Assembly: GCA_965242685.1 (NCBI GenBank)
Contig: OZ251487.1
Location: 547,340 to 611,339, forward strand
Length of the DNA: 64,000 nucleotides
Origin: Gammaproteobacteria bacterium
GTDB taxonomy: Bacteria; Pseudomonadota; Gammaproteobacteria; UBA4575
Direction: 5' to 3'
The notes under the pieces are model-generated. The model saw nothing but the letters and a program-made list of their open reading frames with translations, had not been told where the DNA came from and ran no database searches. Positions 8,662-59,611 of this stretch are shown here, piece by piece. The translations under genes were made by a program, and so were the position numbers. Every line of letters starts with the position of its first letter. Position 1 is the first letter of the stretch.

Positions 8662-9998
8662 CGGAATTACAAAAATTGCCGCGCACTTCCGAAGAATTGA
8701 GCGAGCAAGTGCGGCTTTGCTTGCGTGAAGCAAAAGAGCAAGGCGCAACGAGTGCCGAAGCCTTGGTGAAAATCGAGAATGGCCTATCCGTCACGGCGCG
8801 TCTTGGCAAAGTGGAGACCCTTGAACATCATAACGATCATGGCCTGTCAATCACGGTGTATAGGGGTAAGAAAAAAGGTACTTCAAGCACTACGGGGCTT
8901 GGAGCCGAGGCGGTCAAGGATGCAGTTTCTGCGGCGTGCAGCATTGCGAGGCTCACTCAGGAAGACGACTGTGCCGGGCTTGCCGATGCAGACCTTATGG
9001 CGCCCTTGATTCAGGATTTGGAACTTGACTCCCCCTGGAGACTGACGCCGGAGGATGCACTGGACGTTGCCGTTGAATGCGAAAATGCGGCATGTGAGTT
9101 TGAAGGGATTTCAAACTCGGAGGGTGGCACCGTAACCACTTCGCGCAGCACCCGCGTTTACGGTAACACACACGAGTTTATCGGCGGCTACACATCTACT
9201 CGACATTATTTATCCTGTGCCGTGGTGGCGGGACGGGGGGATGCCATGCAAAGAGATTACTGGTTTACCGCTTCGCGTAACCCGGAAAACCTGGAATCCC
9301 CGGCTTCGGTAGGTAAGAAAGCCGCTCAACGCACGCTCAACAGGCTGGGTGCCAGGAAGCTTTCGACGCGCACGACCCCGGTAATTTTCGAGGCTGGTGT
9401 GGCGCGTTCTTTACTGTCGCATTTTATCTCTGCCGTCAGCGGTGGTGCATTATATCGCAAGGCTTCTTTTCTGCTGAATCAGTTGGATAAAAAGGTATTT
9501 TCCGTGCCGGTAATGATTTCCGAAGACCCGCATGTCAAAGGAGGGTTCGGCAGTAGTTCCTTTGATCTGGAGGGGGTTGCCACATGTTTTCGCACGCTGG
9601 TTGAAGATGGAATTTTAAGAGGTTACGTGCTGAACAGTTATGCGGCACGAAAACTAGGCATGAAAACCACCGGCAATGCGGGTGGAATTCATAATCTTGC
9701 CTTACGACCGGGTAAAAAAACGTTGCTCGAACTGATTGCAGACATGCACAGGGGGCTGTTGATAACAGAACTTATTGGGCACGGCGTAAACCAAGTAACG
9801 GGAGACTACTCGCGCGGTGCCATGGGGTACTGGGTCAGTGATGGCGAAATCCAATACCCTGTTGAAGAAATTACTGTTTCCGGAAACCTGAAAGACATGT
9901 TTCAGAAAATACTTGTTGTCGGCAATGACGTTGACCGACGCGGTAACATCATCACCCCTTCAGTATTGGTAGACGCCATGACGGTGGCGGGTGATTAA
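8658..9998 (+). CDS. pmbA: metalloprotease PmbA (TldE)
   Basis: 446-aa TldD/PmbA-fold protein lacking the HExxxH motif, with C-terminal 'GHGVNQVTGDYSRGAMGYWV'. Coupled to tldD. Confidence 0.9.
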   Translation: MTELQKLPRTSEELSEQVRLCLREAKEQGATSAEALVKIENGLSVTARLGKVETLEHHNDHGLSITVYRGKKKGTSSTTGLGAEAVKDAVSAACSIARLTQEDDCAGLADADLMAPLIQDLELDSPWRLTPEDALDVAVECENAACEFEGISNSEGGTVTTSRSTRVYGNTHEFIGGYTSTRHYLSCAVVAGRGDAMQRDYWFTASRNPENLESPASVGKKAAQRTLNRLGARKLSTRTTPVIFEAGVARSLLSHFISAVSGGALYRKASFLLNQLDKKVFSVPVMISEDPHVKGGFGSSSFDLEGVATCFRTLVEDGILRGYVLNSYAARKLGMKTTGNAGGIHNLALRPGKKTLLELIADMHRGLLITELIGHGVNQVTGDYSRGAMGYWVSDGEIQYPVEEITVSGNLKDMFQKILVVGNDVDRRGNIITPSVLVDAMTVAGD

Positions 9999-43183: not shown

Positions 43184-43251
43184 GTGGAAGGCTTGCGGAA
43201 ATTTTGACGTTTGATGTTGATATTTTTACCGATTTGTAAATATTTGGTTGG

Positions 43252-45969
43252 TTGGTGATGTTGGAAAGAGAGGTAGAGATTGTGGGTGAGACTGTGGGCG
43301 AATTTCGGGGGGCGTATCTTGGCGCGCGTTTTTATAAGTGCGCGTTGCAGGTGAATCCATCTACGTATGCCGAAGAGTATCAGGGGAAACTGGCTCAGAA
43401 AGAAGACGAATACAACCATGAAATTTGGCGGCAGTGCGAAAAAAATGGCATTGAAATTGTAGGGCTTGCCGACCATGGCCAGGTTGAAAGCTCGGAAGGT
43501 TTGCGGAAATTTTTGACAGAAAAGGACATCACCGTGTTTCCAGGGTTTGAGATTGCCAGCTCTGAAAAGATTCACATGGTTTGTCTTTATGCCAAAAATA
43601 CTGACTCGGACACACTCAACGGGTACCTTGGTCAGTTGATGGGTACGAATTTCAAAAAACTTGAACAGCAGCGAACCTACCCATCTTCACTCAGCTGTGA
43701 GGATATCGACAAAAAAATCAAAGAGCAGGATGGCTTCTGGTATGCCGCACACATGACGGGCAGAAACGGTTTATTAAGATTGGATGGCAGCGGTGGTGGC
43801 CTTGCTCATCTGTGGAAAAAAGATGAGTTAGTCATAGCTGGACAAATCCCCGTCAAAATAGAAGGCTTGAGGGATAACTACAGGAAAATTATAGAAAATA
43901 AGAACCCTGATTATGAAAGAAAAAAGCCTATTGTTATTATCAACGCCAAGGATGTATATGAGCCGGAAACATTGTCAAACCCCGCCGCTTCCTGCCTGGT
44001 GAAAATGACCACGCCTACTTTTGATGCCTTCAAAAAAGCGTTTCACGATCCTGAATCCCGCATTCGATTGAACCATGATGTTCCAGAAAAACCTTATTCA
44101 GTCATCAATTCCATTCAATGGGAAGTTGGCGGGTTTTTTAAGGAAAATACACTGTGTTTCTCCAAACATCTGAACACCGTCATTGGTGGGCGCGGTACCG
44201 GCAAGACAACCTTGGTTGAAGGCATACGCTATGTCCTGGGTCTGCCTATACCGAAAGGAAGCGACAAGGAGCTGAATGAGTTTTATAAAAGGAATCTGGG
44301 CGATTCAAAAATTACTCTGCATGTTACTTCAAAGGCACAGGGTCGGCAGCGTTACACGATCAGTAGGAGGTTTGGCGAACATGCGATTGTGAAAAATGCT
44401 GAGGGAGGTATTTCTCATCTCCTTCCGGAAGATATTTTGCCTGACGTTAAGCTATTAGGGCAAAACGAGATACTGGATATTGCAAAAGACGATGCCGAAA
44501 AACTGTCATTGATTCAAAGTTTCTTACCCGATAGCTCCAAGCTTGATGAGAATCTTCAAAGGATTAAACGAGAGATGGCAAACAACAGAGAGCAGCGGGT
44601 CAAGGCGAATGAGGAGTTTGATCGGTTAGAAAGTGAGGTACAGAAGAAACCGAAGCTGGAAGAGCAACTAGAGCATTTTAAGAAACTGGGCATAGAACAA
44701 AAATTAAAGAATGCTAAACAGATTGAGAAGGAAAAAAATATTCAGGCAAGTATTGAGGGGCAGATTGAAAAGGTTGAAGTATGGCTGGAACGTTACGAGG
44801 AAGTGTTTGATTTAGAGTTTTTGCAAGAAACCAGAATTGAATCCTTACCCAATAAAACTATTTTCGAAAAGGAACGAGACATATTTGAGAAGCTTAAAGG
44901 CCATCTGGATACTTCTGTCGGGCAGGCCAATAAAAATTTGGAAGTCGCCATCAATGAACATAGTGGATTAAAAAAAGAGTGGCAGACCGAAGCCGATAAA
45001 ATCAAGGGCGAGCGACAGCAGGCAATTGCTCAATTACCTGGACATGCCGGGAAAACAGGTGAGGAACTGGGAAAGGAGTACACTGATCTTATCCGTTCAC
45101 TGGAATATATAGAGAGGCAAAAAATTGAATACACACGGCAAAAAAAATTGATCAAAACTCTTAAGGAAGAGAGGAAAGAACTGCTGGAAGTATATCGTGA
45201 AACCGCTTTCAATCGTTTTAAGGCTTTGAGAGAAACCGCCGAAGAGTTAAATCGAGACAATCTGAAAGGGAAGGTGAAACTTAAGGTGAAACGTTTTGGC
45301 AATAAGCAGCCTCTTAAAGATTTTTTGTGCACCATCGACGGTATAGGTGAAGCTAAAATAAAATGGTTGGATAAAGTGGAAACCCTGGATTTGTTAGCCT
45401 GGTCAGAATGGATAAAAGAAAAAAATAGAGAGGCCTTTATGGATGCATACCGAGATTATGGGTTGCAAAAGGGCACCGTTGAAAAATTATTGGGTCCTGA
45501 CTTAGGGAAGAGACTCAAACTGGAAGAGATCGAATTGGAAGAGAAGGTTGAGATCGAATTGAATGTTGCGCACGACGGTGGGGAAAATTATAGGCCACTG
45601 GAATATCTTTCCACCGGTCAGCAATGTACCGCTATTCTCAACCTGCTGCTATTAAATTTAAATTGTGATGATCCACTGATCATCGACCAGCCGGAAGATC
45701 ATCTGGATAACGCCTTCATCGCCGACCGTATCGTGCATGATTTAAGAGAATTTAAGACCAGAAGGCAATTTATTTTTACAACCCACAACGCCAATATCCC
45801 GGTTTTTGGCGATGCCGAATTGATCGCGGTGCTAGATAGTGAAAGGAACGAGGGAGAGGTTAAAGAAGCAGGCTCTATTGATAAAAAAGAGATATGCGAA
45901 CAAACGGCCCAGATACTGGAGGGCGGCGAGGCGGCCTTCCAAATGCGCAGACGTAAGTACGGCTATTAA
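43252..45969 (+). CDS. PHP-like domain fused to ABC/SMC-type (RecF/RecN/OLD-class) ATPase with coiled-coil insert
   Basis: N-terminal PHP-like motifs ('GLADHG', 'FPGFEIAS', 'IHMVCLY', 'YAAHM'). Walker A 'GGRGTGKTT' at 44185..44208, a ~400-aa K/E-rich coiled coil, signature 'LSTGQQ', Walker B 'LIIDQPEDHLD' at 45676..45708, and 'TTHNANIPV'. The architecture recalls proteins I remember as TrlF-family AAA-like ATPases (unverified). Confidence 0.7.
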   Translation: MVMLEREVEIVGETVGEFRGAYLGARFYKCALQVNPSTYAEEYQGKLAQKEDEYNHEIWRQCEKNGIEIVGLADHGQVESSEGLRKFLTEKDITVFPGFEIASSEKIHMVCLYAKNTDSDTLNGYLGQLMGTNFKKLEQQRTYPSSLSCEDIDKKIKEQDGFWYAAHMTGRNGLLRLDGSGGGLAHLWKKDELVIAGQIPVKIEGLRDNYRKIIENKNPDYERKKPIVIINAKDVYEPETLSNPAASCLVKMTTPTFDAFKKAFHDPESRIRLNHDVPEKPYSVINSIQWEVGGFFKENTLCFSKHLNTVIGGRGTGKTTLVEGIRYVLGLPIPKGSDKELNEFYKRNLGDSKITLHVTSKAQGRQRYTISRRFGEHAIVKNAEGGISHLLPEDILPDVKLLGQNEILDIAKDDAEKLSLIQSFLPDSSKLDENLQRIKREMANNREQRVKANEEFDRLESEVQKKPKLEEQLEHFKKLGIEQKLKNAKQIEKEKNIQASIEGQIEKVEVWLERYEEVFDLEFLQETRIESLPNKTIFEKERDIFEKLKGHLDTSVGQANKNLEVAINEHSGLKKEWQTEADKIKGERQQAIAQLPGHAGKTGEELGKEYTDLIRSLEYIERQKIEYTRQKKLIKTLKEERKELLEVYRETAFNRFKALRETAEELNRDNLKGKVKLKVKRFGNKQPLKDFLCTIDGIGEAKIKWLDKVETLDLLAWSEWIKEKNREAFMDAYRDYGLQKGTVEKLLGPDLGKRLKLEEIELEEKVEIELNVAHDGGENYRPLEYLSTGQQCTAILNLLLLNLNCDDPLIIDQPEDHLDNAFIADRIVHDLREFKTRRQFIFTTHNANIPVFGDAELIAVLDSERNEGEVKEAGSIDKKEICEQTAQILEGGEAAFQMRRRKYGY

Positions 45970-45971
45970 GG

Positions 45972-47204
45972 ATGTTGAAAAGCGAGGTATTAAAACTCAT
46001 TGGGCAAGGCGAGGGCGCCAAGCTTGAGTTTAAGCGCGATGACGAGCATTCGAAACAACTTGTCAAAGTGCTTGCCAAAGCGATTGTCGCCTTTGCCAAT
46101 ATGAATGGCGGTAAGATTCTGCTCGGTGTCGAGGATGACGGCAAGGTTAGCGGCATCCAACGGGGCAATCTTCAGGAGTGGCTTATGGATACGGTCATCG
46201 GCAGATATGTTCATCCATTTATATTGCCGGATTACGAAGAGGTCGACGTTGAAGGAAAGCGGGTGGCCGTTGTAACCGTTCCTCAAGGTACCAGCAAGCC
46301 ATACTTTCTCAAAGATAAGGATCGCGAAGATGTTTATGTTCGGTATGGAAATGTTTGCAAGTTGGCGGGGCTTGAACAACTGGCCCGGTTGCTTGATTCG
46401 GGAGGTTTGTTAGCCGCAGAGACGTTTCCCGTACATGGTTCCTCTATCGAGGATTTGGATGAGCGGCGTTATGTCGAGTATTTTGAGAGGGTGCTAAAAG
46501 ACCCCGAGGCAAAAGACTGGGGAAAGGAAGACTGGCAGCAAATATTATTTAATCAAAGTTTTCTTGTAGGGGACGATGCCGCCTCATCGGTTTGTAGTTA
46601 TTTTGCTTATGCGCTGTTTGCCAAGCGGCCCGGATTGAGGCTGCCGAAGGCTGAGGCACGTATCACGATATACCCTGGCGAAGATAAGGATTACCATAGC
46701 GATTATGACGAAGTCCTGGACGCGCCTTTTGTTGGGTTTCGCGGCGAGAACTATCCCACGAGTCAGGCTATCGAGCCTACCTTGCATGAAAGGTTGATCG
46801 CAGCTATTAAGCGGCATTTCAGCAAAGAGGAATTGCAGGGAACGGCGCGGCGACGATTCTGGGACTATCCTCCTAAAGTCGTCAGGGAATTGATAATCAA
46901 TGCACTCGTGCACAGGGACTGGACAAAGAGTAACTATGTGCGCGTAACCGTTTATAGCAATCGCCTGGAAGTTACCAGCCCCGGCGGGCTGCCTAACGGA
47001 CTGACCATAGAAAAGATCAAGAGCGGTGCGCAAGTGTCACGCAATCCACAGTGCGTGAGAATTTTCAGAAATTATGAGTATTTGGAAGATGAGGGCATGG
47101 GTATACGGCGCAAGGTTATCCCGTTGATGCGTGAACATAATGGCACAGAGCCGGAGTTTGAGGACTCTGAACATCATTTCAAAGTGACGCTGTGGAAGAA
47201 ATAG
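45972..47204 (+). CDS. AlbA_2 (Schlafen-type DNA/RNA-binding) + HATPase_c_4-like domain protein
   Basis: N-terminal 'GEGAKLEFKRD...AFANMNGGKILLGVEDDG' and C-terminal 'ELIINALVHRDW...VTSPGGLPNG'. Starts 2 nt after the upstream stop and overlaps the res start by 13 nt. Confidence 0.7.
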   Translation: MLKSEVLKLIGQGEGAKLEFKRDDEHSKQLVKVLAKAIVAFANMNGGKILLGVEDDGKVSGIQRGNLQEWLMDTVIGRYVHPFILPDYEEVDVEGKRVAVVTVPQGTSKPYFLKDKDREDVYVRYGNVCKLAGLEQLARLLDSGGLLAAETFPVHGSSIEDLDERRYVEYFERVLKDPEAKDWGKEDWQQILFNQSFLVGDDAASSVCSYFAYALFAKRPGLRLPKAEARITIYPGEDKDYHSDYDEVLDAPFVGFRGENYPTSQAIEPTLHERLIAAIKRHFSKEELQGTARRRFWDYPPKVVRELIINALVHRDWTKSNYVRVTVYSNRLEVTSPGGLPNGLTIEKIKSGAQVSRNPQCVRIFRNYEYLEDEGMGIRRKVIPLMREHNGTEPEFEDSEHHFKVTLWKK

Positions 47205-49990
47205 ACCATCTCATCATCAATTCTCCCTACGAGAAACCTAAGGAGCATTGGTTTTATAAGGTTGAGACTAAAAGATTCAAGAAGGAAGAAGGACGACGGC
47301 GGGCGGGGTATCTGATAGCGACGCCCGGTTTGAAGGGGCGGGGGCATGACGACCCGGGCAGGTTCGTGGAGATTCCGCTCGTCAATAAGATTCGCGGCTG
47401 CGTCGATGCCTGGCGCGAGGCGGGTTATCCGGGGGTAAGCGGGATGACCAAACGCCTGTTGGATTATTGGAACGATCCGGATGAGCGGGACGGCAAGCGG
47501 TTTTTCTTCTGTCAACTGGAGGCGGTGGAGACGCTGATCTGGTTTACCGAGGCGCCCGACAGCGAGAAGGTCGGGATCGAGATGCCCTCGGATGGCAGTG
47601 ACTTCTTGCGCCTGTGTGCCAAGATGGCGACCGGCACCGGTAAGACGGTGGTGATGGCGATGGTGATCGCCTGGCATATCCTGAACAAGGTGACGGATCG
47701 GCGGGACGTGCGTTTTTCCAAGAATATTTTCATCGTGGCGCCCGGTCTGACGGTTAAGAGCCGCCTGGCGGTGTTACAGCCCGCCGACGCCAATAATTAC
47801 TACGAGGAATTTGGCATCGTGCCCACAGACCTGATGGACAAGCTGCGGCAGGGCAAGGTACGGGTTTGCAACTGGCACGCACTCGGTTGGGAGAGCGAGG
47901 AACGGATCGCAAAGAAGAAGGGGGTGGACAAGCGCGGCGCAAAGAGTGACGAGGCGTACACCCGCGAAGTGCTTGACGAGATGGCCAATGCCCGCAATAT
48001 ATTGGTGATCAACGACGAGGCGCATCATGCCTGGCGCGTCAATCCCGAGGCAGAGGGGAAGTATCTGCGACAGAGGGATATGAAGGACAGCGCCGAGGAG
48101 GCGACGATCTGGGTGGGCGGATTGGATCGCCTACACAGGACGCGCGGTATTTTGGCCTGCTATGATTTTTCGGCGACGCCGTTGGCGCCAACCGGAAAGA
48201 AAAGCGTCGAAGAAGCGCTTTTCGGGTGGATCATCAGCGATTTTGGGTTGAATGATGCGATTGAATCGGGGTTGGTGAAGACGCCCCGCGTGGTGGTGCG
48301 GGACGATGCGCTACCGGACGCCAAGACTTATAAATCGCGCCTTTATCACATCTACAGCAATCCCAAGGTGAAGGATGACCTGAATCGCAAGGCAAGCCCC
48401 GAGGAACCGTTGCCGTCTTTGGTGCTCAATGCGTATTGTCTGCTTGGGTATGACTGGAAGGAGACCGCCCGGGACTGGAAAGATGAAAAGGGTGGGCCGC
48501 CGCCTGTGATGATCACCGTCGCCAACCGTACCGAGACCGCCGCCAGGATCAAGTACGCGCTGGAACGAAATCAGATATGGGTAGAGGAATTGTGTGATCC
48601 GGAACGCATTCTGCACATCGACTCCAAGGTGCTGGCGGAGGCCGAGACGGCGGATGAGGCGGTGGCGTTGAATGGGAATGGGAATGGCGGAGGAGGGGAA
48701 ACCCGTAGTAAAAAGCCCACCAAGGCGGCAAGGGCGGAGCAGTTACGCAGGCAGGTGGATACGGTTGGCAAGCCCGGGGCGCCCGGGGAGCAGATCCAAA
48801 AGGTTATTTCGGTGGGGATGCTTTCCGAAGGCTGGGACGCCAAGAACGTTACCCACATTATGGGCTTGCGTGCCTTTACCAGTCAGTTGTTGTGCGAGCA
48901 GGTGGTGGGCAGGGGGCTGCGAAGGATGTCTTATGAGGTGGATGAAAGTAGCGGCTTGTTTGCGCCGGAATATGTCAATGTCTTCGGTGTGCCGTTCAGT
49001 TTTTTGCCGCATGAGGATAGTGGCAGTACACCGGCGCCCACCTTACCGAAGACGCGTATTTATGCCGATCCCGACAAGGGCAAGTTTGAGATCCGCTGGC
49101 CGAACGTCATCCATATCGAGCATACCTATCGCCCGCGCCTTTTTGTGGATTGGAAGAAGGTAGAAACGTTGGAGCTGGAGGCCGGTAATACGCCCAGCAT
49201 TGCGGAATTGGCGGATGTCATTGCAGGGAAGCCCGATGTTACGAAGGTCAAAGACATAGACCTGAGTAAATTGATACGAGGACAACGATTGCAGGAAGTT
49301 GTCTTCAAGATGGCGCGGGAGACTTATGAGCGGATGAAGCCGGACTGGAAGGGCGGCAAGGAGTTTTTGTTGGCGCAACTCGTTGGGCTGACCGAGGAAT
49401 TTATCCATTCCGACCGTATCGTTATCCATCCGGAACTTTTTAATCGGGATGATTTGCGGCGGCGTGTGATGCTGATCTTGCACATGAGCGAGGTCTTGAA
49501 TCACCTGTGGCAGGCGATTCGGTTTGAGAATACCGAGAGGCTGAAGCCGGTTTTTGACCAGCGTCCGTTCCGTGCCACCGGCGACATGCGTGCCTGGTAT
49601 ACCGGCAAGCCCTGTGAATATACGCGGCGGTCGCATATCAATCTCTGTGTCTGTGACAGCACTTGGGAATCGTCCGAGGCCTTTGAGCTTGACCGTAACC
49701 CGGCGGTGGACGCCTGGGTGAAAAACGATCATCTGGGGTTTGAGGTTCTCTATATCTACAATGGCGTCGTGAAGAAGTATCGGCCCGATTTTATTATCCG
49801 CCTGAAGTCGGGTGAGTTTCTGGTACTGGAGACCAAAGGGCAGGAAACGCAACAGGACAAGGCCAAGCGCAAGTTTTTGGATGAGTGGGCGCGGGCGGTC
49901 AACGGGCAGGGCGGGTTGGGTACGTGGCGCACCGCCGTTTCAAAGGCGCCGGCGGATGTTAGGGATATTCTTCATCGTTACGGGGACTGA
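47192..49990 (+). CDS. Type III-like restriction subunit (SF2 helicase + C-terminal PD-(D/E)xK nuclease), Res-like
   Basis: Motif I 'MATGTGKT' (47624..47647) and motif II 'DEAHH' (48014..48028). Motif VI-like 'VVGRGLRR'. C-terminal 'RPDF...LVLETKG' with D at 49787, E at 49829 and K at 49835. Confidence 0.85.
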   Translation: MEEIDHLIINSPYEKPKEHWFYKVETKRFKKEEGRRRAGYLIATPGLKGRGHDDPGRFVEIPLVNKIRGCVDAWREAGYPGVSGMTKRLLDYWNDPDERDGKRFFFCQLEAVETLIWFTEAPDSEKVGIEMPSDGSDFLRLCAKMATGTGKTVVMAMVIAWHILNKVTDRRDVRFSKNIFIVAPGLTVKSRLAVLQPADANNYYEEFGIVPTDLMDKLRQGKVRVCNWHALGWESEERIAKKKGVDKRGAKSDEAYTREVLDEMANARNILVINDEAHHAWRVNPEAEGKYLRQRDMKDSAEEATIWVGGLDRLHRTRGILACYDFSATPLAPTGKKSVEEALFGWIISDFGLNDAIESGLVKTPRVVVRDDALPDAKTYKSRLYHIYSNPKVKDDLNRKASPEEPLPSLVLNAYCLLGYDWKETARDWKDEKGGPPPVMITVANRTETAARIKYALERNQIWVEELCDPERILHIDSKVLAEAETADEAVALNGNGNGGGGETRSKKPTKAARAEQLRRQVDTVGKPGAPGEQIQKVISVGMLSEGWDAKNVTHIMGLRAFTSQLLCEQVVGRGLRRMSYEVDESSGLFAPEYVNVFGVPFSFLPHEDSGSTPAPTLPKTRIYADPDKGKFEIRWPNVIHIEHTYRPRLFVDWKKVETLELEAGNTPSIAELADVIAGKPDVTKVKDIDLSKLIRGQRLQEVVFKMARETYERMKPDWKGGKEFLLAQLVGLTEEFIHSDRIVIHPELFNRDDLRRRVMLILHMSEVLNHLWQAIRFENTERLKPVFDQRPFRATGDMRAWYTGKPCEYTRRSHINLCVCDSTWESSEAFELDRNPAVDAWVKNDHLGFEVLYIYNGVVKKYRPDFIIRLKSGEFLVLETKGQETQQDKAKRKFLDEWARAVNGQGGLGTWRTAVSKAPADVRDILHRYGD

Positions 49991-52900
49991 GGGTTACGCG
50001 GCTTATTTTCTCCGTGGCGTATTTTCCCCCGCTGCCTATTTTCCCTGTGGCGTGCTCGGCGTACTCGTTCAGCCAGCAGAATGTATTGACCAGCTTCATC
50101 TGCTCCACCGTGCCGCAAGGGATTTCCAGCAGGTTGGGATTGGCGACTACAACGGCTAGACACTGGGCGCGGGAGACGGCGACATTTAGGCGGTTCTTGC
50201 TGTAGAGAAACTCGATGTTGCGCGGCAGGTCTGCGGCGCTGGATGTCACCATAGAGATCAGGACGATGGGCGCCTCCTGTCCCTGGAATTTGTCGACGGT
50301 GCCGACCTTGGCGTTCTCCGGCAGGATGGAGCGCAGATAATTCACCTGCACATTGTAAGGCGTGACCACCAGGATGTCGTTCTCGGTGATCGGGCGCGTG
50401 CCGCCGTCGCGATCGGTGAAGGCCTGCCCAAGCAGGGTTTGGTATTTGGCTTTGATGATCCGGCCTTCCTCGACGCTCTTTTGCGAACAGCCTTCATGCC
50501 GGGCCGGGATCATCGCTATGCCTTCGTTGGGGAGATCAATGCCTTGTAGATTCAGATTACGCGCGGCGGTGCTTTCGTGGGCGGTCAGGCGGCCATCATA
50601 GAAGGCATCGGAAATAAATTGGCAAATGCCGGGGCGCATGCGGTACGTCCGGCCAAGAAAAATGCCGCGTTCGGCAGGGATGGTAGAGTGATCGCCAAGT
50701 AGGAATTCCAGCACCGATAGTCCGGCCTCGCCCGGATGCGTGCCTTGAATGGGCTGGCCCAGCTGCATTTGATCGCCCACCAGGATAATGTTTTTAGCGG
50801 CGGTGGACATGGCCACGACGTTGGCGGTTGCAACCTGTCCGGCCTCATCGATAAAGAGATAGTCCAAGCGACCATCAAAATGCGGGTTGGCGAAGGTCCA
50901 TGCCGTTCCGGCAAACAGATCGGCGCCGAGGTTGATGTTGTCGGTCTTGGTTTCGGGAGTAATGAAGCGGCCATTAAAGAAGGTTTCAGCGTTACCGCCA
51001 CTGGCCTTTTTGATGCCATCGAAGTGCACGCCTTTTTCGGCGGCGACATTTTCCACCTTTTCCAAGAGGTTGTGGATGGCCTTGTGGGAGTTGGAAGTAA
51101 CGCCGATCTTTTTGCCGCGTTTGATCAAGTCGACGATGATGTGGCTGCTGGTGTAGGTCTTACCGGCCCCCGGCGGGCCTTGAATGAAGAGATAGCTGTT
51201 TTCCAGCGCGGCGATGGCTGCCAGCGCATCTGTTTGCAAATCATCGGAGGTGATGATCGCCTCGCCGGGCGGCTTGTCGTGAATGCGCGGCACACGGCGC
51301 GCCAGCAGTTCGGTTGCGGCGCGGGCGGTGTCGGGCGATTGCAATACCTGATCGGCATAGCGGTAGAGGGCCGCGCGGATGATCTTGCTGTCAATCGGGC
51401 CCGGCGGGCCGATGGAGAGGCTTGCCGGCAACGGGTCTTTGTTTGTCCCGCGCCTGATCCTGACGATGCGGGTATCCTCGTCGATCTCGACGAGGGTGCC
51501 GGCGGTCTTCATGGCGGCGACGTCAACGGCCTGTGCGCCGACCTTTAGCTTGTATTCCTGTGACGGGAAACGGTAGGTATAGATCAGGGAGCGTTTGTCC
51601 GGTTCGGGCGCACCGATCTGTTGTAGGCCGCCCAGGCATTCGGTGTCGTCGATTAGCTCGTCTTCAAACTTGTTTTGACGTTCGAAGCCGCTCCACCATT
51701 GCGGCTTGGCTTCCCGGTTGTGAAACTCTAACAGATGGGCCAGCAGATGGGATAGCAGATGGGATGGGCGTTCATCGTTCGGCGGCGGGTCTTCACCGGT
51801 CACGCCCAGACGGGTCTGGTAGTGCTCATATTCGATCTCCCAGTCTTTACGCTGTAGCTGTTCGTCTTCGGCATCTTCCGGCACGCCCTTAAACCATGCC
51901 GTATCTTGAGGCTTGAGGGTCAGCAGCCAATCACGCAGCAGGTGGGTGGAAACGCAGTCTACCTCGTTATAACCGGCGATCGCTTGCAGCAATTCATCGG
52001 CGCCGGTCTCGCGCCATTCGTTGTAAAAGATGATGCTATCCGCCGCCGTTGCCACCGTATTGTCTCGTTCGTCCATGTAGAAGGTTTCCAAGTTTTTGAT
52101 GGAGTAGCCGGGTTCGGAGGTGCGGATGCTCTCGCGCACCACCAGGTACAGGTCGATGAATTTTTGATTGCGGAGTAGGTTGTCCAGCCGTTCCTCGCAA
52201 ACCGCATAGCGGCAGGCCAGCCGTTTCAGCGCGGTCGTTTCATAGTGGTTGTAGTGGTAGATGTGGGCGTGCGGGTGCGCGGCCAGATGGTCGGCCAGAA
52301 AGCCCATAAAGCGTTGGAAGGTCGCTTTCTCCTGTTCGTGATCGTGTGCCCAGAAGGGTTTGAAGCGCTTTTCGCCGTGCTTGGAGTAATAGACGCCAAA
52401 CAGGTATTCCAGGCCGTTCGGGTAGAGTGGATCGCCCTCCATATCGAAGAACAGGTCGCCATCATCGGGCACAGGCAGGCGGGCGAAGCCCTTGTTTGAC
52501 GGGAATGTGTTCGATGGAAATGCGTCGGGCGGGCACGGGATGATCTCGCATTGGTCCTCGCCCGTGGTGGCTTTGTGATGCTGTAAGACCGCCTGTGCGC
52601 GCAGACGCTGGAATACGTCACGGTTTAGGTCGGGGATTTTTTTGTGCGGCGATGTTGCCGCCAGATCGGCAACGGTGCGGATGCCGGTGTTGCGCAGCTT
52701 GTCCATCTGAGCGCGTTGGATATTGGCCACGAGGCTTAAATGGTCGTCTTTTTCCCAGCGCGCTGTACAGCCATCGCGCCACTGGCAGGCGTTACAATGG
52801 CCGCATGGCTCGGGGTAGGAATTGGTAGGCAGGTTTTGAAGATAGCTTTCAAAACGGCCTTTGGCGCGGCGGTAGTAGTAGAAGAAATCGGCCACCCGGA

Positions 52901-53434
52901 AGCCGTGTTTTTTGTGGTCGCCCAGAAACAGGTGCATAGTGGCCGGACGCAAGCCCTGTAATGCCGCCAGCAGCTCTGAATACACGCACAGTTGCATGAT
53001 GTGTTTGGGCGCGGCGGTTCGCGCCAGTTTGGTGTCGAGCACCTCATAGCTAAAATATCGCCCAAGCCGGAGGATGTGTCGCATTTCATCAGGAAGTCGG
53101 CATCGCCCCGCCAAGGGGGGTCAAGGAGTACGGCCTGATAGATGACGTCCGCACCGGATTGCATGGCATCGTGTGTAAGGGAAGCCCGATCCCGTAAGTT
53201 GTGACCTTTGGGGATCTCAATAACGGCTTTGCCTTCGTCCTTCAGGTGTTGGAGATAGGCGGCCTCGTGCTCCAAGCCTTTCTGCCGCAGTAGTCGGTCG
53301 GTCGTACTGGCTTCGGTCTTGTCCATCTTTTCAGTCAGCGCCTTCACGTCAAGAAGGCTGGCATGGTGACATCCCAAGAAGGTGGTCAAGTCCGAGGGGG
53401 AGTAGAGGATCCGATCGTTGCCGTATTGCTGCAT
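49959..53434 (-). pseudogene. RecB/Cas4-like Fe-S nuclease + RNaseH-fold exonuclease-like + Dna2/Upf1-type SF1 helicase, interrupted by a -1 frame change near 53055-53065
   Basis: Two overlapping ORFs (52736..53434 and 49959..53114) join into one architecture. 'GDADFLMKCDTSSGLG' in the first frame runs into 'YFSYEVLDTKLAR' in the second. Also present: Cys cluster 'CGHCNACQWRDGC' (52767..52805), 'FFDMEGDP', Walker A 'GPPGAGKTYT', 'FIDEAGQ', 'GDQMQLGQP', 'DKFQGQE' and 'NVAVSRA'. Confidence 0.7.
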
Positions 53435-53583: not shown

Positions 53584-53676
<93 letters not shown>

Positions 53677-53865
53677 ATAGAATTTAGGGTAGCAGTATAT
53701 CGGTAAGAGTATAGCGGATAAAGGGGCACTACTCGCCGAGATTTTTTTCTGTAGGGCTTCGTTTTTTCTTGATCGTTTCAAGAGAACCTTGATTTTTGTC
53801 TTCGGGGTTCGGTGGTTTTTAGCGGGTTTTAGGTATGATATTTCGGTATAATTGCCACTTCAGAT

Positions 53866-53942
53866 GCGCCCGTAGCTCAGTTGGATAGAGTGCGTGGCTA
53901 CGAACCACGAGGTCGGGAGTTCGAATCTCTCCGGGCGCGCCA
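53866..53942 (+). tRNA. tRNA-Arg (anticodon ACG)
   Basis: 77 nt. Acceptor GCGCCCG/CGGGCGC, anticodon loop CTACGAA, TPsiC GTTCGAAT, encoded CCA. Confidence 0.9.
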
Positions 53943-54026: not shown

Positions 54027-54983
54027 ATGAATATAAAAATAATCAAGAGAAGCGATGCACGCGAATCCGAGATAACCGCCGAGGCCCTGTATGAGAGCCG
54101 CCGCGAGTTCCTGCGAGGGTCGGTCTCCATGGCCGCCATGACGATGATGCCGGCGTTTTCGATGTGGCCGGTGGCCGGACGTGCCAAGCTGGATTTTGGC
54201 AGTATCGGCGAGAGTGCCTTTTCCACCGGCGAGGAGCTTACATCCATCGATGATGTGACGAGCTATAACAATTTCTATGAGTTGGGGACGGGTAAGAAAG
54301 ACCCGAAACGGAACGCGCATCTTCTGAAGGTTACGCCCTGGCACGTTCGGGTCGAGGGTGAATGCGACAAGCCGGGGGAATATGCGCTAGAGGATTTTAT
54401 CGGTTCATCAAGGCTGGAGGAGCGCATCTATCGGTTACGCTGTGTCGAGGCCTGGTCGATGGTCATCCCCTGGGTGGGGGTGGAGCTAGGTTCCGTTCTC
54501 AAGCGTTTTGAGCCTAATTCAAGGGCCAAATACGTGCAGTTTTTTACCATCCATGACCCGGAAAATCTGCCGGGGCAGAAGCGCCCCATCCTGGAGTGGC
54601 CGTATCGTGAGGGGCTGCGTATGGATGAGGCCATGCACCCGCTTGCTATCTTTGCGGTCGGTCTGTACGGGAAGGAGATGCCAAATCAGAACGGCGCGCC
54701 GCTGCGTTTGGTGGTGCCGTGGAAATACGGCTTCAAGAGTATCAAGTCCATCGTCAGGGTGCGTTTCACCGAGGAGCAGCCGGCGACCACCTGGAATACT
54801 TCCGCCCCGCGTGAATATGGGTTTTATTCCAACGTCAATCCGGCAGTGGATCATCCGCGCTGGAGCCAGAAGCGCGAACGCCGTATCGGTGAGTTTCGAA
54901 AACGCGAGACGCTGCCTTTTAACGGCTATGCCGAGGAAGTGGCCGGTTTGTATGGAGATATGGATCTCGAGAAGTATTTTTAG
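54027..54983 (+). CDS. msrP: protein-methionine-sulfoxide reductase catalytic subunit MsrP (YedY)
   Basis: Tat signal 'SRREFLRGS' and molybdopterin-oxidoreductase core '[18 protein letters not shown]' and '[18 protein letters not shown]'. Confidence 0.9.
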
Positions 54984-55005
54984 GTTCTTTTCGGTTTTTC
55001 TTCTG

Positions 55006-55036
55006 ATCCACGTGGGGTTGTGGATTCGTGTGTTTT
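55006..55036 (+). terminator. weak hairpin + T-tract downstream of msrP
   Basis: atccac (55006..55011) pairs with gtggat (55020..55025) around an 8-nt loop, followed by tcgtgtgtttt. The stem is short and the T-run interrupted. Confidence 0.3.
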
Positions 55037-55081
55037 CGAGATGATGTAGGAGAAGTGTATGGTGTATATAGTTGCTAAACG

Positions 55082-55339
55082 TTGTGTATATTTACCAAGT
55101 GTCTGACGTGTAGCAATTCGTACCCACTCACACGTACCGATAAACAATTCTGCTCAGACACTTGCGAAGGGCGTGCAGGCTATCGGAGACGCAGGGGCTT
55201 ACCCGTATCCGATGTTGATTTTGAGGCGTACCAGCGCGAGCAAGGCCGTACAGCACATAGACGGCGTGAGCGGAAAAACTATCTACCCGTGACGCCGACA
55301 GTTCGGCAGAAAGAACAACAACAGGAGAGCGTAGGGTGA
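55082..55339 (+). CDS. small basic zinc-ribbon-like protein
   Basis: 85 aa with 'CLTC...x14...FCSDTCEGRAGYRRRRG', a Cys4 ribbon followed by an Arg-rich tail as in many small phage or mobile-element proteins. TTG start. Overlaps the next ORF by 4 nt. Confidence 0.45.
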   Translation: MCIFTKCLTCSNSYPLTRTDKQFCSDTCEGRAGYRRRRGLPVSDVDFEAYQREQGRTAHRRRERKNYLPVTPTVRQKEQQQESVG

Positions 55340-55638
55340 ATGGTTTTATGCAATGGTGTTTAGGCGCGTTCATTATCAGTATGGTAGGGCTGGGGGTTAT
55401 GGAGATTTTTGAGCCTGAGGCGGATTTACCCAACAAGTATGATTTTTGTAAGACGGAAGGCGGGTATTGGCACTGTTCTCATCATCCAATGACGTATGAA
55501 TATCCAGAAAGGCTTGAATGCGTGGACAAACATTGTGAAGTCAAAATAGACAGGAAAACAGGCGACAAGTTCAAGTTCATGGAAATACGTTTTGAAAATT
55601 GGGAAAAAGAGCGGGGGTATCTACACGTCCATGATTGA
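55336..55638 (+). CDS. small membrane-anchored Cys/His-rich protein
   Basis: 100 aa with an N-terminal TM helix. GTGA overlap with the upstream ORF. Confidence 0.45.
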   Translation: MNGFMQWCLGAFIISMVGLGVMEIFEPEADLPNKYDFCKTEGGYWHCSHHPMTYEYPERLECVDKHCEVKIDRKTGDKFKFMEIRFENWEKERGYLHVHD

Positions 55639-55674
55639 CGGGCAACAGCAACAAGGCGATAACGATACAGTACA

Positions 55675-56034
55675 TTGAACAGTTACATTATAAACAGCGA
55701 AACGAAAAACAAGCTGGTGACATTGGGTTGTGACATTGGCGTGGCGGTGGGCGTGTTACTTACTTTGGACAGACACAAAATACCGCCGTTTGACGATGGA
55801 TTCAGATGCACTTATGGAGAGTTCAAAGAGATGTTGAAACGGGGGTATCTAGTGGAGATAAGCGTCCCCGATTTAGGGGCAATAATGGACTTGTTTAATC
55901 ATTACCCAACAGCAAAGTTAGAGGGTATACAGCTTGACTTATTTAATCATGATCCAACAACAGAGGCGCAGATAAAAAACAAGGTTATATCGGTTCACAA
56001 GACGGACAAGGGGAAGGGGAAAATATACTTTTGA
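55675..56034 (+). CDS. hypothetical protein with internal 'DLFNH-PT' repeat
   Basis: 119 aa with 'MDLFNHYPT' and 'LDLFNHDPT' 15 residues apart. TTG start, so the call is uncertain. Confidence 0.35.
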   Translation: MNSYIINSETKNKLVTLGCDIGVAVGVLLTLDRHKIPPFDDGFRCTYGEFKEMLKRGYLVEISVPDLGAIMDLFNHYPTAKLEGIQLDLFNHDPTTEAQIKNKVISVHKTDKGKGKIYF

Positions 56035-56176
56035 ACGTGTAATAGGAAGGGGTATTGATGGCGTGTACTTTACAGCGTTGTGCGGGCACTTGCAGGTTTA
56101 GAGCTGGTTGAATTTCAATGCCGTTTCGTTTATCTTGAAAAGGTGATGGAAGGGAGCAAATATAGGAGAACAATGA

Positions 56177-56467
56177 ATGGAAACCTTTAATTTCTTTCAA
56201 GCAATAATTGATCAATACGGAGTGGTGGGCGTGATAGTTGGTTTTGTTTGGCTTCATTTCCAAATTAAAGGTATGAAAGACAACACCAATACCCGAATTG
56301 ATGGTATCAAGGATGACGTAAAAGAGATCAAGGATTTGTTTGTAAGGCACGAGCAGCAATGCAATGAAAGACACCAACAGTTCATGGACTATATGAAAGA
56401 ACACGGGGACAGAATATCCAAGCTGGAAGGCAGGTTAGACGAGAGGCAACAACAGCCGGCGACCTGA
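56177..56467 (+). CDS. small N-terminally anchored coiled-coil protein, paralog 1
   Basis: 96 aa with a TM helix ('VVGVIVGFVWLHF'), 'NTRIDGIKDDVKEIKD' and a conserved tail 'HQQFMDYMKEHGDRISKLEGRLDERQQQPAT'. AGGAGA SD-like sequence 7 nt upstream. Confidence 0.6.
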   Translation: METFNFFQAIIDQYGVVGVIVGFVWLHFQIKGMKDNTNTRIDGIKDDVKEIKDLFVRHEQQCNERHQQFMDYMKEHGDRISKLEGRLDERQQQPAT

Positions 56468-56566
56468 CCTGTTCCTAGTGCGCGTGATTATGATGTTCCG
56501 TAAGGCGAGGTAGTTTCGTTTATCTTGAAAAGGTGGCGGAAGGGAGCAAATACAGGAGAACAATGA

Positions 56567-56902
56567 ATGGAAGCCTTTAACTTCTTTCAAACAATGGTTG
56601 ATGAATATGGAGCGGTGGCAGTGCTGTTTGGCTTTGTGTTGGGTTGGCTTTATTTCCGTTTCCGAATTGATGGTATAGAAAACAACATCAATATCAACAT
56701 GGAAAACATCAATACCCGAATTGATGGTATAGAAAACAACATCAATAAAAGCATAGAAAGGATCGAGAATGCGTTTGCAGAGCATGAGAGGAAATGCGCG
56801 GAAAAGCACCAACAGTTCATAGACTATATGGAAGAACACTCGGGCAGAATATCGCATATAGAAGGCAGGCTAGACGAGAGGCAACAACAGCCGGCGACCT
56901 GA
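56567..56902 (+). CDS. small N-terminally anchored coiled-coil protein, paralog 2
   Basis: 111 aa with the same leader, TM helix and tail as paralog 1, plus an in-frame 18-codon duplication ('RIDGIENNIN' twice). Confidence 0.6.
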   Translation: MEAFNFFQTMVDEYGAVAVLFGFVLGWLYFRFRIDGIENNININMENINTRIDGIENNINKSIERIENAFAEHERKCAEKHQQFIDYMEEHSGRISHIEGRLDERQQQPAT

Positions 56903-57002
56903 CCTGTTCCTAGTGCGCGTGATTATGATGTTCCGTAAGGCGAGGTAGTTTCTCGTTTATCTTGAAAAGGTGATGGAAGGGAGCGATACAGAGGAATAAT
57001 GA

Positions 57003-57329
57003 ATGGACAATAGCGGCAACGGCTTCATTGAATGGCTTTTCAAACAGGGTTCGTTGGGAGCGATACTTGGAGTTGTCTTGTTTGTGGGATATAACAGTAT
57101 CAATACCAAAATTGACAACGTGTATACCAATCTCAATACCAAAATTGACAGCGTGAGTACCAGTATCAATGCCAGAATTGATAGCGTGAATGTAAGAATT
57201 GATGGTATCCAGGCCGATATAAAAGAGATCAAGGATAGGGAAAAGTGGTTTATGGATCATGTGATCAAAAACGGGGACAGGATATCTAAGCTGGAAGGGC
57301 AACTGGCGAGGGAACAGGGCAATTCTTAA
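57003..57329 (+). CDS. small N-terminally anchored coiled-coil protein, paralog 3 (diverged)
   Basis: 108 aa with a TM helix, four 'N-x-[KR]-I-D-x-V' repeats, 'IKEIKD' and 'GDRISKLEGQL'. Confidence 0.55.
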   Translation: MDNSGNGFIEWLFKQGSLGAILGVVLFVGYNSINTKIDNVYTNLNTKIDSVSTSINARIDSVNVRIDGIQADIKEIKDREKWFMDHVIKNGDRISKLEGQLAREQGNS

Positions 57330-57482
57330 TCCATAGTCTCAGCGTCCCATCGTCTCATCGTCCCATCCTATATACGCACTTCATAATATCGGGACAAACC
57401 CCACAGCCATAGGCTATGCCCCCTCGCCGGCGCGCTTGCGGCAAGCCTGCCTGCGGAAGGGGATGCCGGCGGGGTTTTATCC

Positions 57483-58100
57483 GTGAAGTTCAGCGCAAGA
57501 TACTTGGTAAGGCCGGTATTGTTTCTGGCGCTGCTTATCCCGCTAGGCCTGCACGCCTACGGGTTTTTCAGTGGTGCCGCCGGCGCCAATCCGATTGAGT
57601 TTGTGACGCGGCGCGCGGGCGACTGGGCGTTGAGGATCCTGCTGATCACCCTGGCGATCTCGCCGTTGGCAAGGATCACCGGCTGGCATGGGTTGGTACG
57701 CTACCGAAGGATGTTCGGCCTGTTTGCATTTTTCTACGTCTGCGTCCATCTCTTTTTGTATGTCACCTTGGATAAATTCTTCGATATGGGTGAAATCCTG
57801 GATGACGTGATCAAGAGGCCGTTTATCACCGCCGGTTTTTCGTCGTTTTTGTTGCTGATACCGCTTGCGGTTACGTCAACCAGGAGAATGGTGGAGCGGT
57901 TACAGCATCGCTGGGTTTTGCTGCACCGGTTGGTCTATCTGATCGCGGTGCTGGCGGTGTTGCATTTCTGGTGGATGGTGAAGGCGGATACGCGGGAGCC
58001 GGCCATCTATGCGGCCGTGCTGGCCGTGCTGCTCGGGTTCAGGTTGTTTTTCTACGTGAGGAGAAGGCTGCGCCCCTTGTCACGCCGAGGCGGAATATAG
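57483..58100 (+). CDS. msrQ: protein-methionine-sulfoxide reductase heme-binding subunit MsrQ (YedZ)
   Basis: 205-aa, six-TM ferric-reductase-like protein with 'RRMFGLFAFFYVCVHLFLY' and 'LHFWWMVK' His ligand contexts. GTG start. Confidence 0.85.
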   Translation: MKFSARYLVRPVLFLALLIPLGLHAYGFFSGAAGANPIEFVTRRAGDWALRILLITLAISPLARITGWHGLVRYRRMFGLFAFFYVCVHLFLYVTLDKFFDMGEILDDVIKRPFITAGFSSFLLLIPLAVTSTRRMVERLQHRWVLLHRLVYLIAVLAVLHFWWMVKADTREPAIYAAVLAVLLGFRLFFYVRRRLRPLSRRGGI

Positions 58101-58666: not shown

Positions 58667-58743
58667 GCGCCCGTAGCTCAGTTGGATAGAGTACCTGGCT
58701 TCGAACCAGGTGGTCGGGAGTTCGAGTCTCTCCGGGCGCGCCA
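58667..58743 (+). tRNA. tRNA-Arg (anticodon UCG)
   Basis: 77 nt. Acceptor, D and T arms are nearly identical to the tRNA-Arg(ACG) at 53866. Anticodon loop CTTCGAA, encoded CCA. Confidence 0.88.
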
Positions 58744-58788: not shown

Positions 58789-59157
58789 TTACCTGTTCAA
58801 CACGTTGTCCCGATGCCTTTCAATCGTGTTGATGACCTTGTCTATTTGCGGTTCCCCGATATTCATTTCACGCAACGTTTTTTTCACGCATTCCATCATG
58901 GCGTCAAAATGTTCATCGCTCAGGCCGTTTTCCACCGCATTTTTATGCGCCCTACGCATGTCTTTGCCGGTATATAGGGAAGGGCCGCCGAAGATGTAGG
59001 TTAGAAAAGCGTTCATCTTCAGCTCTTGCTTTTTGATGTCCACGTTTTCAAAAAATCCCTTGATACGCTCGTCACGCAGTATGTTTACGTACAGATAGTG
59101 CGAGGCCTTTTTAACGGTGTCTTTACCGCCGATTTCTTGGTATAGAGTTTCGTCCAT
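58789..59157 (-). CDS. glbN: group I truncated hemoglobin (trHbN), copy 1
   Basis: 122 aa with 'LYQEIGG', 'FF..VD', 'FLTYIFGGPSLYTGKDMRRAH' and 'HFDAMMEC'. Confidence 0.8.
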   Translation of the reverse strand: MDETLYQEIGGKDTVKKASHYLYVNILRDERIKGFFENVDIKKQELKMNAFLTYIFGGPSLYTGKDMRRAHKNAVENGLSDEHFDAMMECVKKTLREMNIGEPQIDKVINTIERHRDNVLNR

Positions 59158-59242
59158 AGTCGTGTATAGTGTTAGGGGTTTATATTGGATGTATGGGTGC
59201 GCCGGCGGGCGCGGCGCGGGCTAAAAAAGTGTGCGTTCGTCG

Positions 59243-59611
59243 TCATCTGTTGAGTACGTCGTCTCGATAGCTTTCGATTTTGTCTAGAACTATGCCTGCC
59301 TGACTTTCACCGACGCCCAAGTCGTTCAACGTTTTTTTCACACACTCTAGCACCGCATCAAAATGTCCGTCATTCAGACCATTTTCCACCGCCTTTTTGT
59401 GTGCCTGACGCATGTTTCTGCCTTCATAGATGGCCGGGCCACCAAGTGCCTGGGTCAAAAAGGTGCTCATCTTGCGCTCTTGTCTTGCTATGTCGACGGT
59501 ATCAAAGAAGCCTTTGATACGGTCGTCATTCATGATGTTCAGGTACAGGTGATGCGCGGCCGCCGTCATGGCGGCTTGACCGCCAAGTTCTTCGTATAGG
59601 GTCTTGCTCAT
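59243..59611 (-). CDS. glbN: group I truncated hemoglobin (trHbN), copy 2
   Basis: 122 aa, collinear with copy 1 without gaps. 'LYEELGG', 'FLTQALGGPAIYEGRNMRQAH' and 'HFDAVLEC'. Confidence 0.8.
   Translation of the reverse strand: MSKTLYEELGGQAAMTAAAHHLYLNIMNDDRIKGFFDTVDIARQERKMSTFLTQALGGPAIYEGRNMRQAHKKAVENGLNDGHFDAVLECVKKTLNDLGVGESQAGIVLDKIESYRDDVLNR

Follow-up and report, generated by a model that had tools for sequence, protein, structure and literature searches.

What are the three short genes that lie one behind the other between msrP and msrQ in a gammaproteobacterial genome, how did they come to be three, and what might their products do? The question is raised by a stretch of 64,000 nucleotides (nt) of contig OZ251487.1 (positions 547,340 to 611,339 of the forward strand), hereafter called the window, in which three tandem open reading frames (ORFs), named p1, p2 and p3 (Table 1), were found again at the positions given for them in an earlier note made from the letters alone. 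These genes are, as judged from sequence, members of a very small, lineage-restricted family without a name. The architecture of their products, a single transmembrane (TM) segment followed by a coiled coil, is well supported, and a topology and a mode of oligomerisation can be predicted for them. The array itself is subject to recombination in natural strains, by which whole units, repeats within genes and segments of paralogs are gained, lost or exchanged. To this account of anatomy and genetic mechanism, from which the role of the proteins is excluded, a probability of roughly 0.7 is assigned.

The units of the array are bound together by repeats at several scales. Indeed, the common leader described by the earlier note is present: its motif, GTTTAYCYTGAAAAGGTGAYGG, is matched three times in the window, solely before p1, p2 and p3, for a chance expectation from shuffles of 0.02 matches, and a ribosome-binding site (RBS) of AGGAG type is located 6 nt before the ATG of all three genes alike. 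The two copies of an 82-nt block, said to be identical, are so, their identity extends beyond neither copy, and this block is a substrate for unequal recombination. The exact 32-nt repeat announced for p2, with copies 54 nt apart, was also recovered; the plain gain of 18 codons over p1 that had been deduced from it was not, three indels (12, 21 and 12 nt) making p2 the longer by 15 codons. Likewise, p3 does carry consecutive repeats, which are not the four heptads that had been read there, since the first three are units of 33 nt or 11 residues (hendecads) and the last step is one of 7 residues, and the tail motif held to be common to the three proteins is fitted only in part by that of p3, WFMDHVIKNGDRISKLEGQL. 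A 16-nt tandem direct repeat, CCATAGTCTCAGCGTC / CCATCGTCTCATCGTC, is located just past the p3 stop codon (57331-57362), and a shorter version of it occurs in L084, a related genome of 1.76 Mb whose MsrP is 90% identical.

Natural variation at the site was found to be extensive. One family gene is encoded between msrP and msrQ in L084, two in L001 and in L003, and three in the window. The single gene of L084 is preceded by a stub made of the leader plus three codons and followed by a 28-codon 3' fragment of p3 type. The site of L001 contains an IS605-type TnpB gene, the island genes z85 and c100 (Table 1) and two family genes, the first of which is a chimera with a p1-like 5' half and a p2-like 3' half; in L003, p1 (100% identical) is directly followed by a p3 devoid of one 11-residue repeat (97 amino acids, aa); and in the p1 of L002 about 45 nt form a conversion tract that resembles p2. 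Variant joints are also present in contigs from sponge metagenomes (X5-X7). One metagenome joint, from 56487 to 56924, skips exactly 436 nt, which is one unit, and lies inside the 82-nt block; another, from 57094 to 57128 in X7, leaves p3 short of one 33-nt repeat; and a metagenome variant of p2 has a 21-nt insertion behind position 56737. Because these variants are seen directly in strains and metagenomes, they demonstrate that the array expands and contracts by recombination: (i) unequal homologous recombination between near-identical blocks of tail, spacer and leader adds or removes units, (ii) the helix changes in length through in-frame gain and loss of intragenic repeats, and (iii) segments are exchanged between paralogs via crossover and gene conversion. 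The picture of an expanding and contracting family with a coiled coil of variable length was thus borne out, both by the survey of copy and repeat number in strains and by the search for recombination between units that had been proposed with it. No on/off switch was detected in the array, which contains no homopolymer of 7 nt or more, no inverted repeats and no invertase switch. Integron cassettes were considered and rejected, as no attC-like inverted repeats are present in the spacers and no integrase is encoded among the neighbouring ORFs scanned.

A repetitive region of this kind might be an assembly duplication, or a set of decaying selfish repeats with accidental ORFs, and hence non-functional. 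The gene fragments in L084 would agree with such an origin, as would the long antisense ORFs that cross each unit on the minus strand (55985-56404, 139 aa; 56435-56857, 140 aa; 56910-57302, 130 aa). Three independent public runs from two samples (X1-X3) speak against the former: contigs end exactly at the repeat borders, the depth of the unique p1 and p2 pieces equals that of the flanks (13.5-16.6 versus 15.4-19), and the 82-nt block is covered about twice as deeply (33.3; 6 versus 3; 12 versus 5.7). Since this pattern matches three units in all three runs, an assembly artefact is excluded, and the units do not collapse to one copy, an outcome that the earlier note had held against its own reading. 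As for accidental ORFs, the ratio of nonsynonymous to synonymous substitution rates (dN/dS) in the sense frame is 0.12-0.27 for p3 orthologs (L001, L003, L084), and in the two of these p3 pairs that are more divergent no other frame has a lower value (0.27 versus 0.52 for the best antisense frame); the antisense ORFs are consequently regarded as by-products and rejected as selected genes. Moreover, every natural indel is in frame (12, 21, 33 and 54 nt), a strong RBS precedes each unit, and profile searches find members at 30-40% identity with the same architecture. Between paralogs, in p1/p2-type comparisons, dN/dS is 0.7-1.1. On the evidence of frame-specific selection, p1, p2 and p3 are real protein-coding genes, and a non-functional array, already largely refuted, is extremely improbable. 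The runs with related sequence are labelled sponge metagenomes, so the host, whose genome is of about 1.8 Mb (the contig of the window is of 1.83 Mb), is an uncultured sponge-associated gammaproteobacterium.

The family to which the three genes belong is small whatever the method: a word-indexed search returned 5 proteins, a hidden Markov model scan of 1.84 billion representative proteins 19 matches (7 with an E-value of 1e-10 or less), and a profile search 35 matches. Every match of visible origin belongs to this lineage or its sponge metagenomes, being either from one sample series or from the two complete genomes; no relative came up when the representative genomes of GTDB, IMG/VR and the metagenomes of JGI were scanned by pattern, and a literature search gave no description of the family. 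At least 8 members are encoded on the 1.83-Mb contig, at least 5 of them outside the window. The proteins are assembled from shuffled modules, namely a short acidic N-tail, one predicted TM segment, N-x-[KR]-[IF]-D-x-[VI] units of 11 or 7 residues in varying number, and a conserved C-terminal box, [FL]-[IM]-x-Y-M-K-[DE]-H-E-G-R-I-[SA]-x-x-E-G-R-L, usually followed by a QQQPAT tail. The N- and C-modules occur in differing combinations (at least five N-terminal/TM types and three types of C-terminal box), and the proteins range from 60 to about 120 aa, mostly through the number of NxRIDxV repeats. Other loci include L086, where an island adjoining McrBC encodes three complete members, of 79, 89 and 71 aa, and a homolog of the island ORF o119; L085, with one member and a weak paralog adjoining a ResIII-methylase pair; L089, with a tandem pair adjoining a gene for an outer-membrane protein (OMP); and L090, with a single member adjoining kdsB. 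The weak paralog of L085 is a 115-aa ORF (8498-8845, after P0016) with a TM segment, a coiled coil, a QQPA-containing C-terminal region and the same leader motif, and it may be decaying or divergent, as its match to the family profile is weak (E 0.0017). The weaker matches from L087 and L088, which are other bacteria, each concern a single gene with a housekeeping context and have perhaps only a generic architecture in common with the family.

Regarding protein structure, the AlphaFold2 model of p3, built on the family alignment (predicted local distance difference test, pLDDT, 83.4), comprises a short helix at residues 7-14 and a continuous helix at residues 17-106, and hydrophobicity is periodic with a peak at 3.6 residues, in keeping with a mixture of heptads and hendecads. 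Most members have 0-1 lysine or arginine (K/R) in the flank preceding the TM segment (the range over all members being 0-2), where the net charge is mostly negative, and the 15 residues past the segment contain 1-5. Under the positive-inside rule this distribution suggests, with moderate strength, an N-out/C-in topology with the coiled coil facing the cytoplasm. Each protein would consist of a single uninterrupted helix that leaves the membrane on the cytoplasmic side, would probably oligomerise through the C-terminal box, and would have a stalk whose length is set by repeat number at about 1.6 nm per 11 residues.

Each unit is preceded by a leader in which TAYCYT-GAAAAGGTGAYGG is placed 39-50 nt before the start codon, as it is at every locus examined, divergent paralogs of another species included, and the motif is conserved before family genes at the unrelated loci L085, L086, L089 and L090. 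A TTGnnn hexamer is present 17-19 nt upstream of the motif at first or solitary genes. The motif may be a weak sigma70-type -10 element with the beginning of the 5' untranslated region, of which each unit would carry one. A reading as RNA element was rejected, the leader having no Rfam match and only 8 RNAalifold pairs, without covariation; in the absence of any supported RNA structure, a putative promoter acting at the DNA level is preferred. Neither IMG/VR nor the metagenomes of JGI contain the leader motif.

The array is part of an accessory island of 2.5 kb that is a compositionally foreign insert splitting the msrPQ operon. Indeed, the GC content of the island is 0.447, for 0.557 in msrP and 0.563 in msrQ, and GC at third codon positions is 0.47-0.52 in the island genes, for 0.68 and 0.75 in msrP and msrQ; furthermore, msrP directly adjoins msrQ in L004-L007, the four nearest species-level genomes to be found, which are metagenome-assembled genomes of uncultured Gammaproteobacteria (three of the four with chromosomes or contigs of 1.1-1.8 Mb; MsrQ 67-80% identical). 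It is this adjacency, together with a composition unlike that of the flanks, that identifies the island as an insertion.

Table 1. Features of the array, of its island and of the neighbouring genes, in coordinates of the window
Feature	Positions	Strand	Description
p1	56177-56467	+	96 aa; acidic N-tail, one predicted TM segment, coiled coil, box FMDYMKEHGDRISKLEGRL, tail QQQPAT
p2	56567-56902	+	111 aa; architecture as p1; internal duplication spaced by 54 nt, giving RIDGIENNIN twice
p3	57003-57329	+	108 aa; N-module (MDNSGNGFIEW...) unlike that of p1 and p2, heptads and three repeats of 11 residues, box WFMDHVIKNGDRISKLEGQL
82-nt identical block, copy 1	56436-56517	+	last codons of p1, stop, spacer, start of leader 2
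82-nt identical block, copy 2	56871-56952	+	identical to copy 1
Direct repeat inside p2	56662-56747	+	exact 32-nt copies at 56662-56693 and 56716-56747, 54 nt apart
Tandem repeats of p3	57090-57188	+	three 33-nt (11-codon) units
Leader 1	56108-56176	+	putative -35 TTGAAT (56108-56113), 17-nt spacer, putative -10 TATCTT (56131-56136), GAAAAGGTGATGG, RBS AGGAGA (56165-56170)
Leader 2	56513-56566	+	-10-like TATCTT kept; no -35-like hexamer
Leader 3	56953-57002	+	precedes p3
Accessory island	54984-57482	+	low-GC 2.5-kb insert in the msrP-msrQ spacer; genes co-oriented with msrP and msrQ
msrP (left flank)	54027-54983	+	NCBIfam NF003767, E 1.2e-138
msrQ (right flank)	57483-58100	+	NCBIfam NF003831, E 2.4e-53
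z85	55082-55339	+	85 aa, arginine-rich, zinc-ribbon-like motif; DUF2116 treble clef below threshold (E 0.0031)
c100	55336-55638	+	100-aa orphan; hydrophobic N-terminal segment, several cysteines
o119	55675-56034	+	orphan ORF; 67 aa in the public record; internal DLFNH(Y/D)PT repeat
Cluster upstream of msrP	40541-53114		N6/N4 DNA methylase (880 aa); SMC/AAA-like ATPase (905 aa); Schlafen-AlbA2/HATPase_c_4 protein (410 aa); ResIII helicase (932 aa)
Cluster upstream of msrP, minus-strand gene	40541-53114	-	RNaseH-like plus SF1 helicase protein (1050 aa)

Three further ORFs are encoded in the island upstream of p1. The start codon of c100, a GTG, shares nucleotides with the stop codon of z85 (GTGA, 55336-55339), which suggests that the two genes are translationally coupled, and both have an ortholog in L001 (89% identity for z85 and 57% for c100); no family match was obtained for c100 in Pfam, PHROGs, NCBIfam and PADLOC searches. 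The direct repeat of o119, whose copies are 48 nt apart (55888-55965), encodes DLFNHYPTAK and DLFNHDPTTE. The search for homologs of this ORF gave two database matches only, so that it is considered an orphan; the homolog in L086, the second island with family members, shares 43% identity (E 7.5e-14). At the left edge of the L001 island, between msrP and z85, a TnpB of 453 aa with OrfB_IS605 and Cas12f1-like domains is encoded (446-1807), which is absent from the window. A long GC-rich hairpin with a terminator-like look (57395-57482) has at its end GGGGTTTTAT, followed 5 nt later by the start codon of msrQ, a GTG; its stability is no greater than that of shuffled sequence (z = -0.67) and its T-run is not kept in L084. 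Genes for tRNA-Ser(GCT), tRNA-Arg(ACG) and tRNA-Arg(TCG) bracket msrP, the island and msrQ (53584-53942 and 58667-58743); variable regions are often marked by tRNA genes. Beyond them, two tandem ORFs of 122 aa are encoded on the minus strand (58789-59611), the one at 58789-59157 matching the truncated-globin Pfam family Bac_globin, and both members of the syntenic pair in L084 are called Bac_globin.

The location of the array could mean that its products assist MsrPQ in oxidative repair, or that they sense metals or oxidants. The site between msrP and msrQ is conserved across three species (represented by the window, L001/L003 and L084), every island gene has the orientation of the operon, and p1/p2-type proteins carry in the coiled coil a stripe H58-x3-C62-x3-H66, followed by M70 and M73 on the same helical face, at a spacing of about 3.6 residues, C62 being aligned with a core isoleucine of the other paralogs. 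However, the His/Cys stripe is missing from p3 and most other members, most copies are located elsewhere, adjoining restriction systems, the OMP gene or kdsB, and the nearest species found have msrPQ without an insert. In addition, methionine makes up only about 3-4% of these proteins, in contrast to Met-rich scavenger peptides. A function tied to MsrPQ, or to sensing through the His-Cys-His-Met-Met stripe, is therefore very unlikely.

The resemblance to small phage membrane proteins of lysis or superinfection-exclusion type, which the earlier note had seen, would make the genes a remnant or a moron of a phage module acting at the inner membrane, whether holin, XhlA-type protein, i-spanin or superinfection-exclusion (Sie)-like protein. 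Small size, a single TM segment, a charged coiled coil and the low GC of the island are compatible with this. The best sequence-profile matches obtained are also with two functionally uncharacterised families of phage proteins, phrog_1009 (E 8.6e-6 for p1, 3.7e-5 for p2 and 8.9e-3 for p3, over about 80% of the profile) and phrog_5553 (E 6e-5 for p3), whose members are likewise of about 100-115 aa and whose matches span the TM segment and the coiled coil; they differ in that the scores are weak and that no phage genome or viral contig has a detectable relative. Indeed, tblastn against 50,697 phage genomes gave nothing below E 0.1, and neither a relative nor the leader motif was found in IMG/VR. 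Matches to holin, spanin and hemolysin PHROGs have E-values of 0.027 or worse (spanins: phrog_739, E 0.027, and phrog_1152, E 0.081; holins: phrog_1296, E 0.16, and phrog_689, E 0.41), none of which is significant, and no endolysin is encoded nearby. Among the proposed checks, PHROGs thus yielded weak matches to families of unknown function only, and Foldseek with the p3 model gave 0 matches against the PDB and a best E-value of 0.12 against BFVD, a single helix having no discriminating fold; a profile search of the PDB returned only spurious or generic coiled-coil matches (cyanovirin constructs, HA2).

The better-characterised lysis proteins compare no more closely. XhlA, a lysis-associated protein of PBSX type found in lysis cassettes of Gram-positive phages, is also a small membrane protein with a coiled coil, and p3-type relatives reach 25-26 bits against its profile (PF10779; p3 itself 15.3, the best relative, P0031, 25.7), below the gathering cutoff of 34.7; its TM segment is C-terminal, that of p1-p3 is N-terminal, and the island (z85, c100, o119 and p1-p3 between msrP and msrQ) is no lysis cassette. 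The Rz-type i-spanins share the order of an N-terminal TM segment and a coiled coil, and differ in having an o-spanin partner, for which no candidate ORF with a lipobox after a basic N-terminus was found on either strand of 54984-57482, in their endolysin and holin neighbours, and, by prediction, in their N-in/C-out orientation, opposite to the one that the K/R distribution, a rule of thumb, favours here. DUF7310 (PF23991) reaches at best 27 bits (P0031, P0033) for a cutoff of 40 bits, and XhlA, DUF7310, HSBP1 and similar families were set aside as sub-threshold coiled-coil similarity. More generally, no match to a well-characterised family, a result that would have spoken against the earlier note, passes a curated threshold in Pfam, NCBIfam or PADLOC. 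No lysis, phage structural or integrase genes occur among the ORFs scanned in or beside the island, and the family is present in at least 8 chromosomal copies per genome, several adjoining housekeeping genes. As neither homology nor the context (no lysis or integrase gene among the ORFs scanned, no lipoprotein ORF in the island) speaks for it, the label of lysis or exclusion protein is unsupported, and an origin as phage module is unlikely.

What role, then, might the family play? The preferred answer, a tentative one and less likely than not, is that of an accessory, dispensable membrane factor in conflict with phages or mobile elements, a guess whose sole basis is the high turnover of the genes, their composition and their neighbourhood. 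A defence-type cluster is encoded upstream of msrP in the window (Table 1), and a partly matching set (methylases, Schlafen/AlbA2, ResIII) occurs upstream of msrP in L084. The alternative of a lineage-specific housekeeping scaffold of the membrane, comparable to YhcB, PspB or the stalk formed by ATP-synthase subunit b, in which an N-anchored cytoplasmic helix would organise or space complexes at the membrane, with changes in copy number as a neutral by-product, would account for the purifying selection on orthologs, for the predicted N-out/C-in topology with a single long helix, for the hendecad plus heptad periodicity and for the distant single-copy proteins with a TM segment and repeats in housekeeping contexts of other bacteria (L087, L088). 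Yet scanning the representative genomes of GTDB by pattern, the nearest relatives found here among them, turned up no relative; whole units are lost in natural strains, leaving 1-3 copies at one site; the composition is foreign; and paralogs evolve at dN/dS 0.7-1.1. A scaffold of this kind is, on balance, rather doubtful.

Several findings count against the account of the proteins, leaders and role proposed here: (i) the model of p1 is poor (pLDDT 61); (ii) the suggested topology derives solely from the positive-inside rule, which is ambiguous, and weakest, for p3-type members; (iii) the internal units of the msrPQ array have no -35-like hexamer, and a scan of the plus strand with a strict sigma70 consensus found nothing, so that the promoter reading makes use of weaker hexamers; (iv) the association with defence genes concerns three loci only, in genomes that are rich in restriction systems, and other members adjoin housekeeping genes (the OMP gene of L089, kdsB of L090); (v) no match with E below 0.001 was obtained in PADLOC-DB 2.0, where coiled-coil noise begins at E 0.0018 (JetC and ZorA models); and (vi) a search for RNA sequencing runs gave none that is clearly of RNA.

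A broader and fairly doubtful proposal would see the units as mini-cassettes, each with its own promoter and RBS, which spread to many sites between the genes of a reduced symbiont genome, their products being a new class of inner-membrane stalks of tunable length. Shuffling and repeat change would be under selection, and the stalks would act either as barrier to, or sensor of, phages and invading DNA or, in the His-Cys-His-Met-Met subtype, as a metal- or oxidant-responsive coiled coil recruited into msrPQ. If a role of the family is selected, the array would be a compact natural case of a membrane coiled coil whose length is tuned by gain and loss of repeats, and would illustrate how an orphan family can arise and multiply in a symbiont genome of small size, and settle even within a conserved operon that is not destroyed by it. 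For practical work, the natural length variants could be used to relate coiled-coil length to function, the conserved leader might find use as promoter probe in a sponge symbiont that is uncultured, and the array could be a marker locus for the distinction of strains in sponge metagenomes. The locus may thus be of moderate interest for the fields of symbiont genome dynamics and coiled coils.

Among known systems, two comparisons are instructive, one genetic and one architectural. The vlp/vsp-type families of mycoplasmas consist of size-variable surface proteins, and the genetic analogy with them is manifold: tandem paralogs, a strongly conserved 5' leader, in-frame repeats that vary protein length, and chimeras between genes. 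The array indeed combines a conserved leader before each of its tandem paralogs with in-frame repeats whose number differs between strains; in contrast to the mycoplasma families, the host is Gram-negative, no surface exposure is predicted, and no signal peptide or lipobox was found in the array proteins. ATP-synthase subunit b, PspB and YhcB all combine an N-out tail and one TM segment with a long cytoplasmic helix, and subunit b, in addition, has an 11-residue periodicity and tolerates changes in length. These proteins share neither sequence similarity nor a conserved operon context with p1-p3, whose family is multi-copy and strain-variable, and the likeness is one of architecture only: a short, putatively N-out tail, a single TM segment and a long continuous helix.

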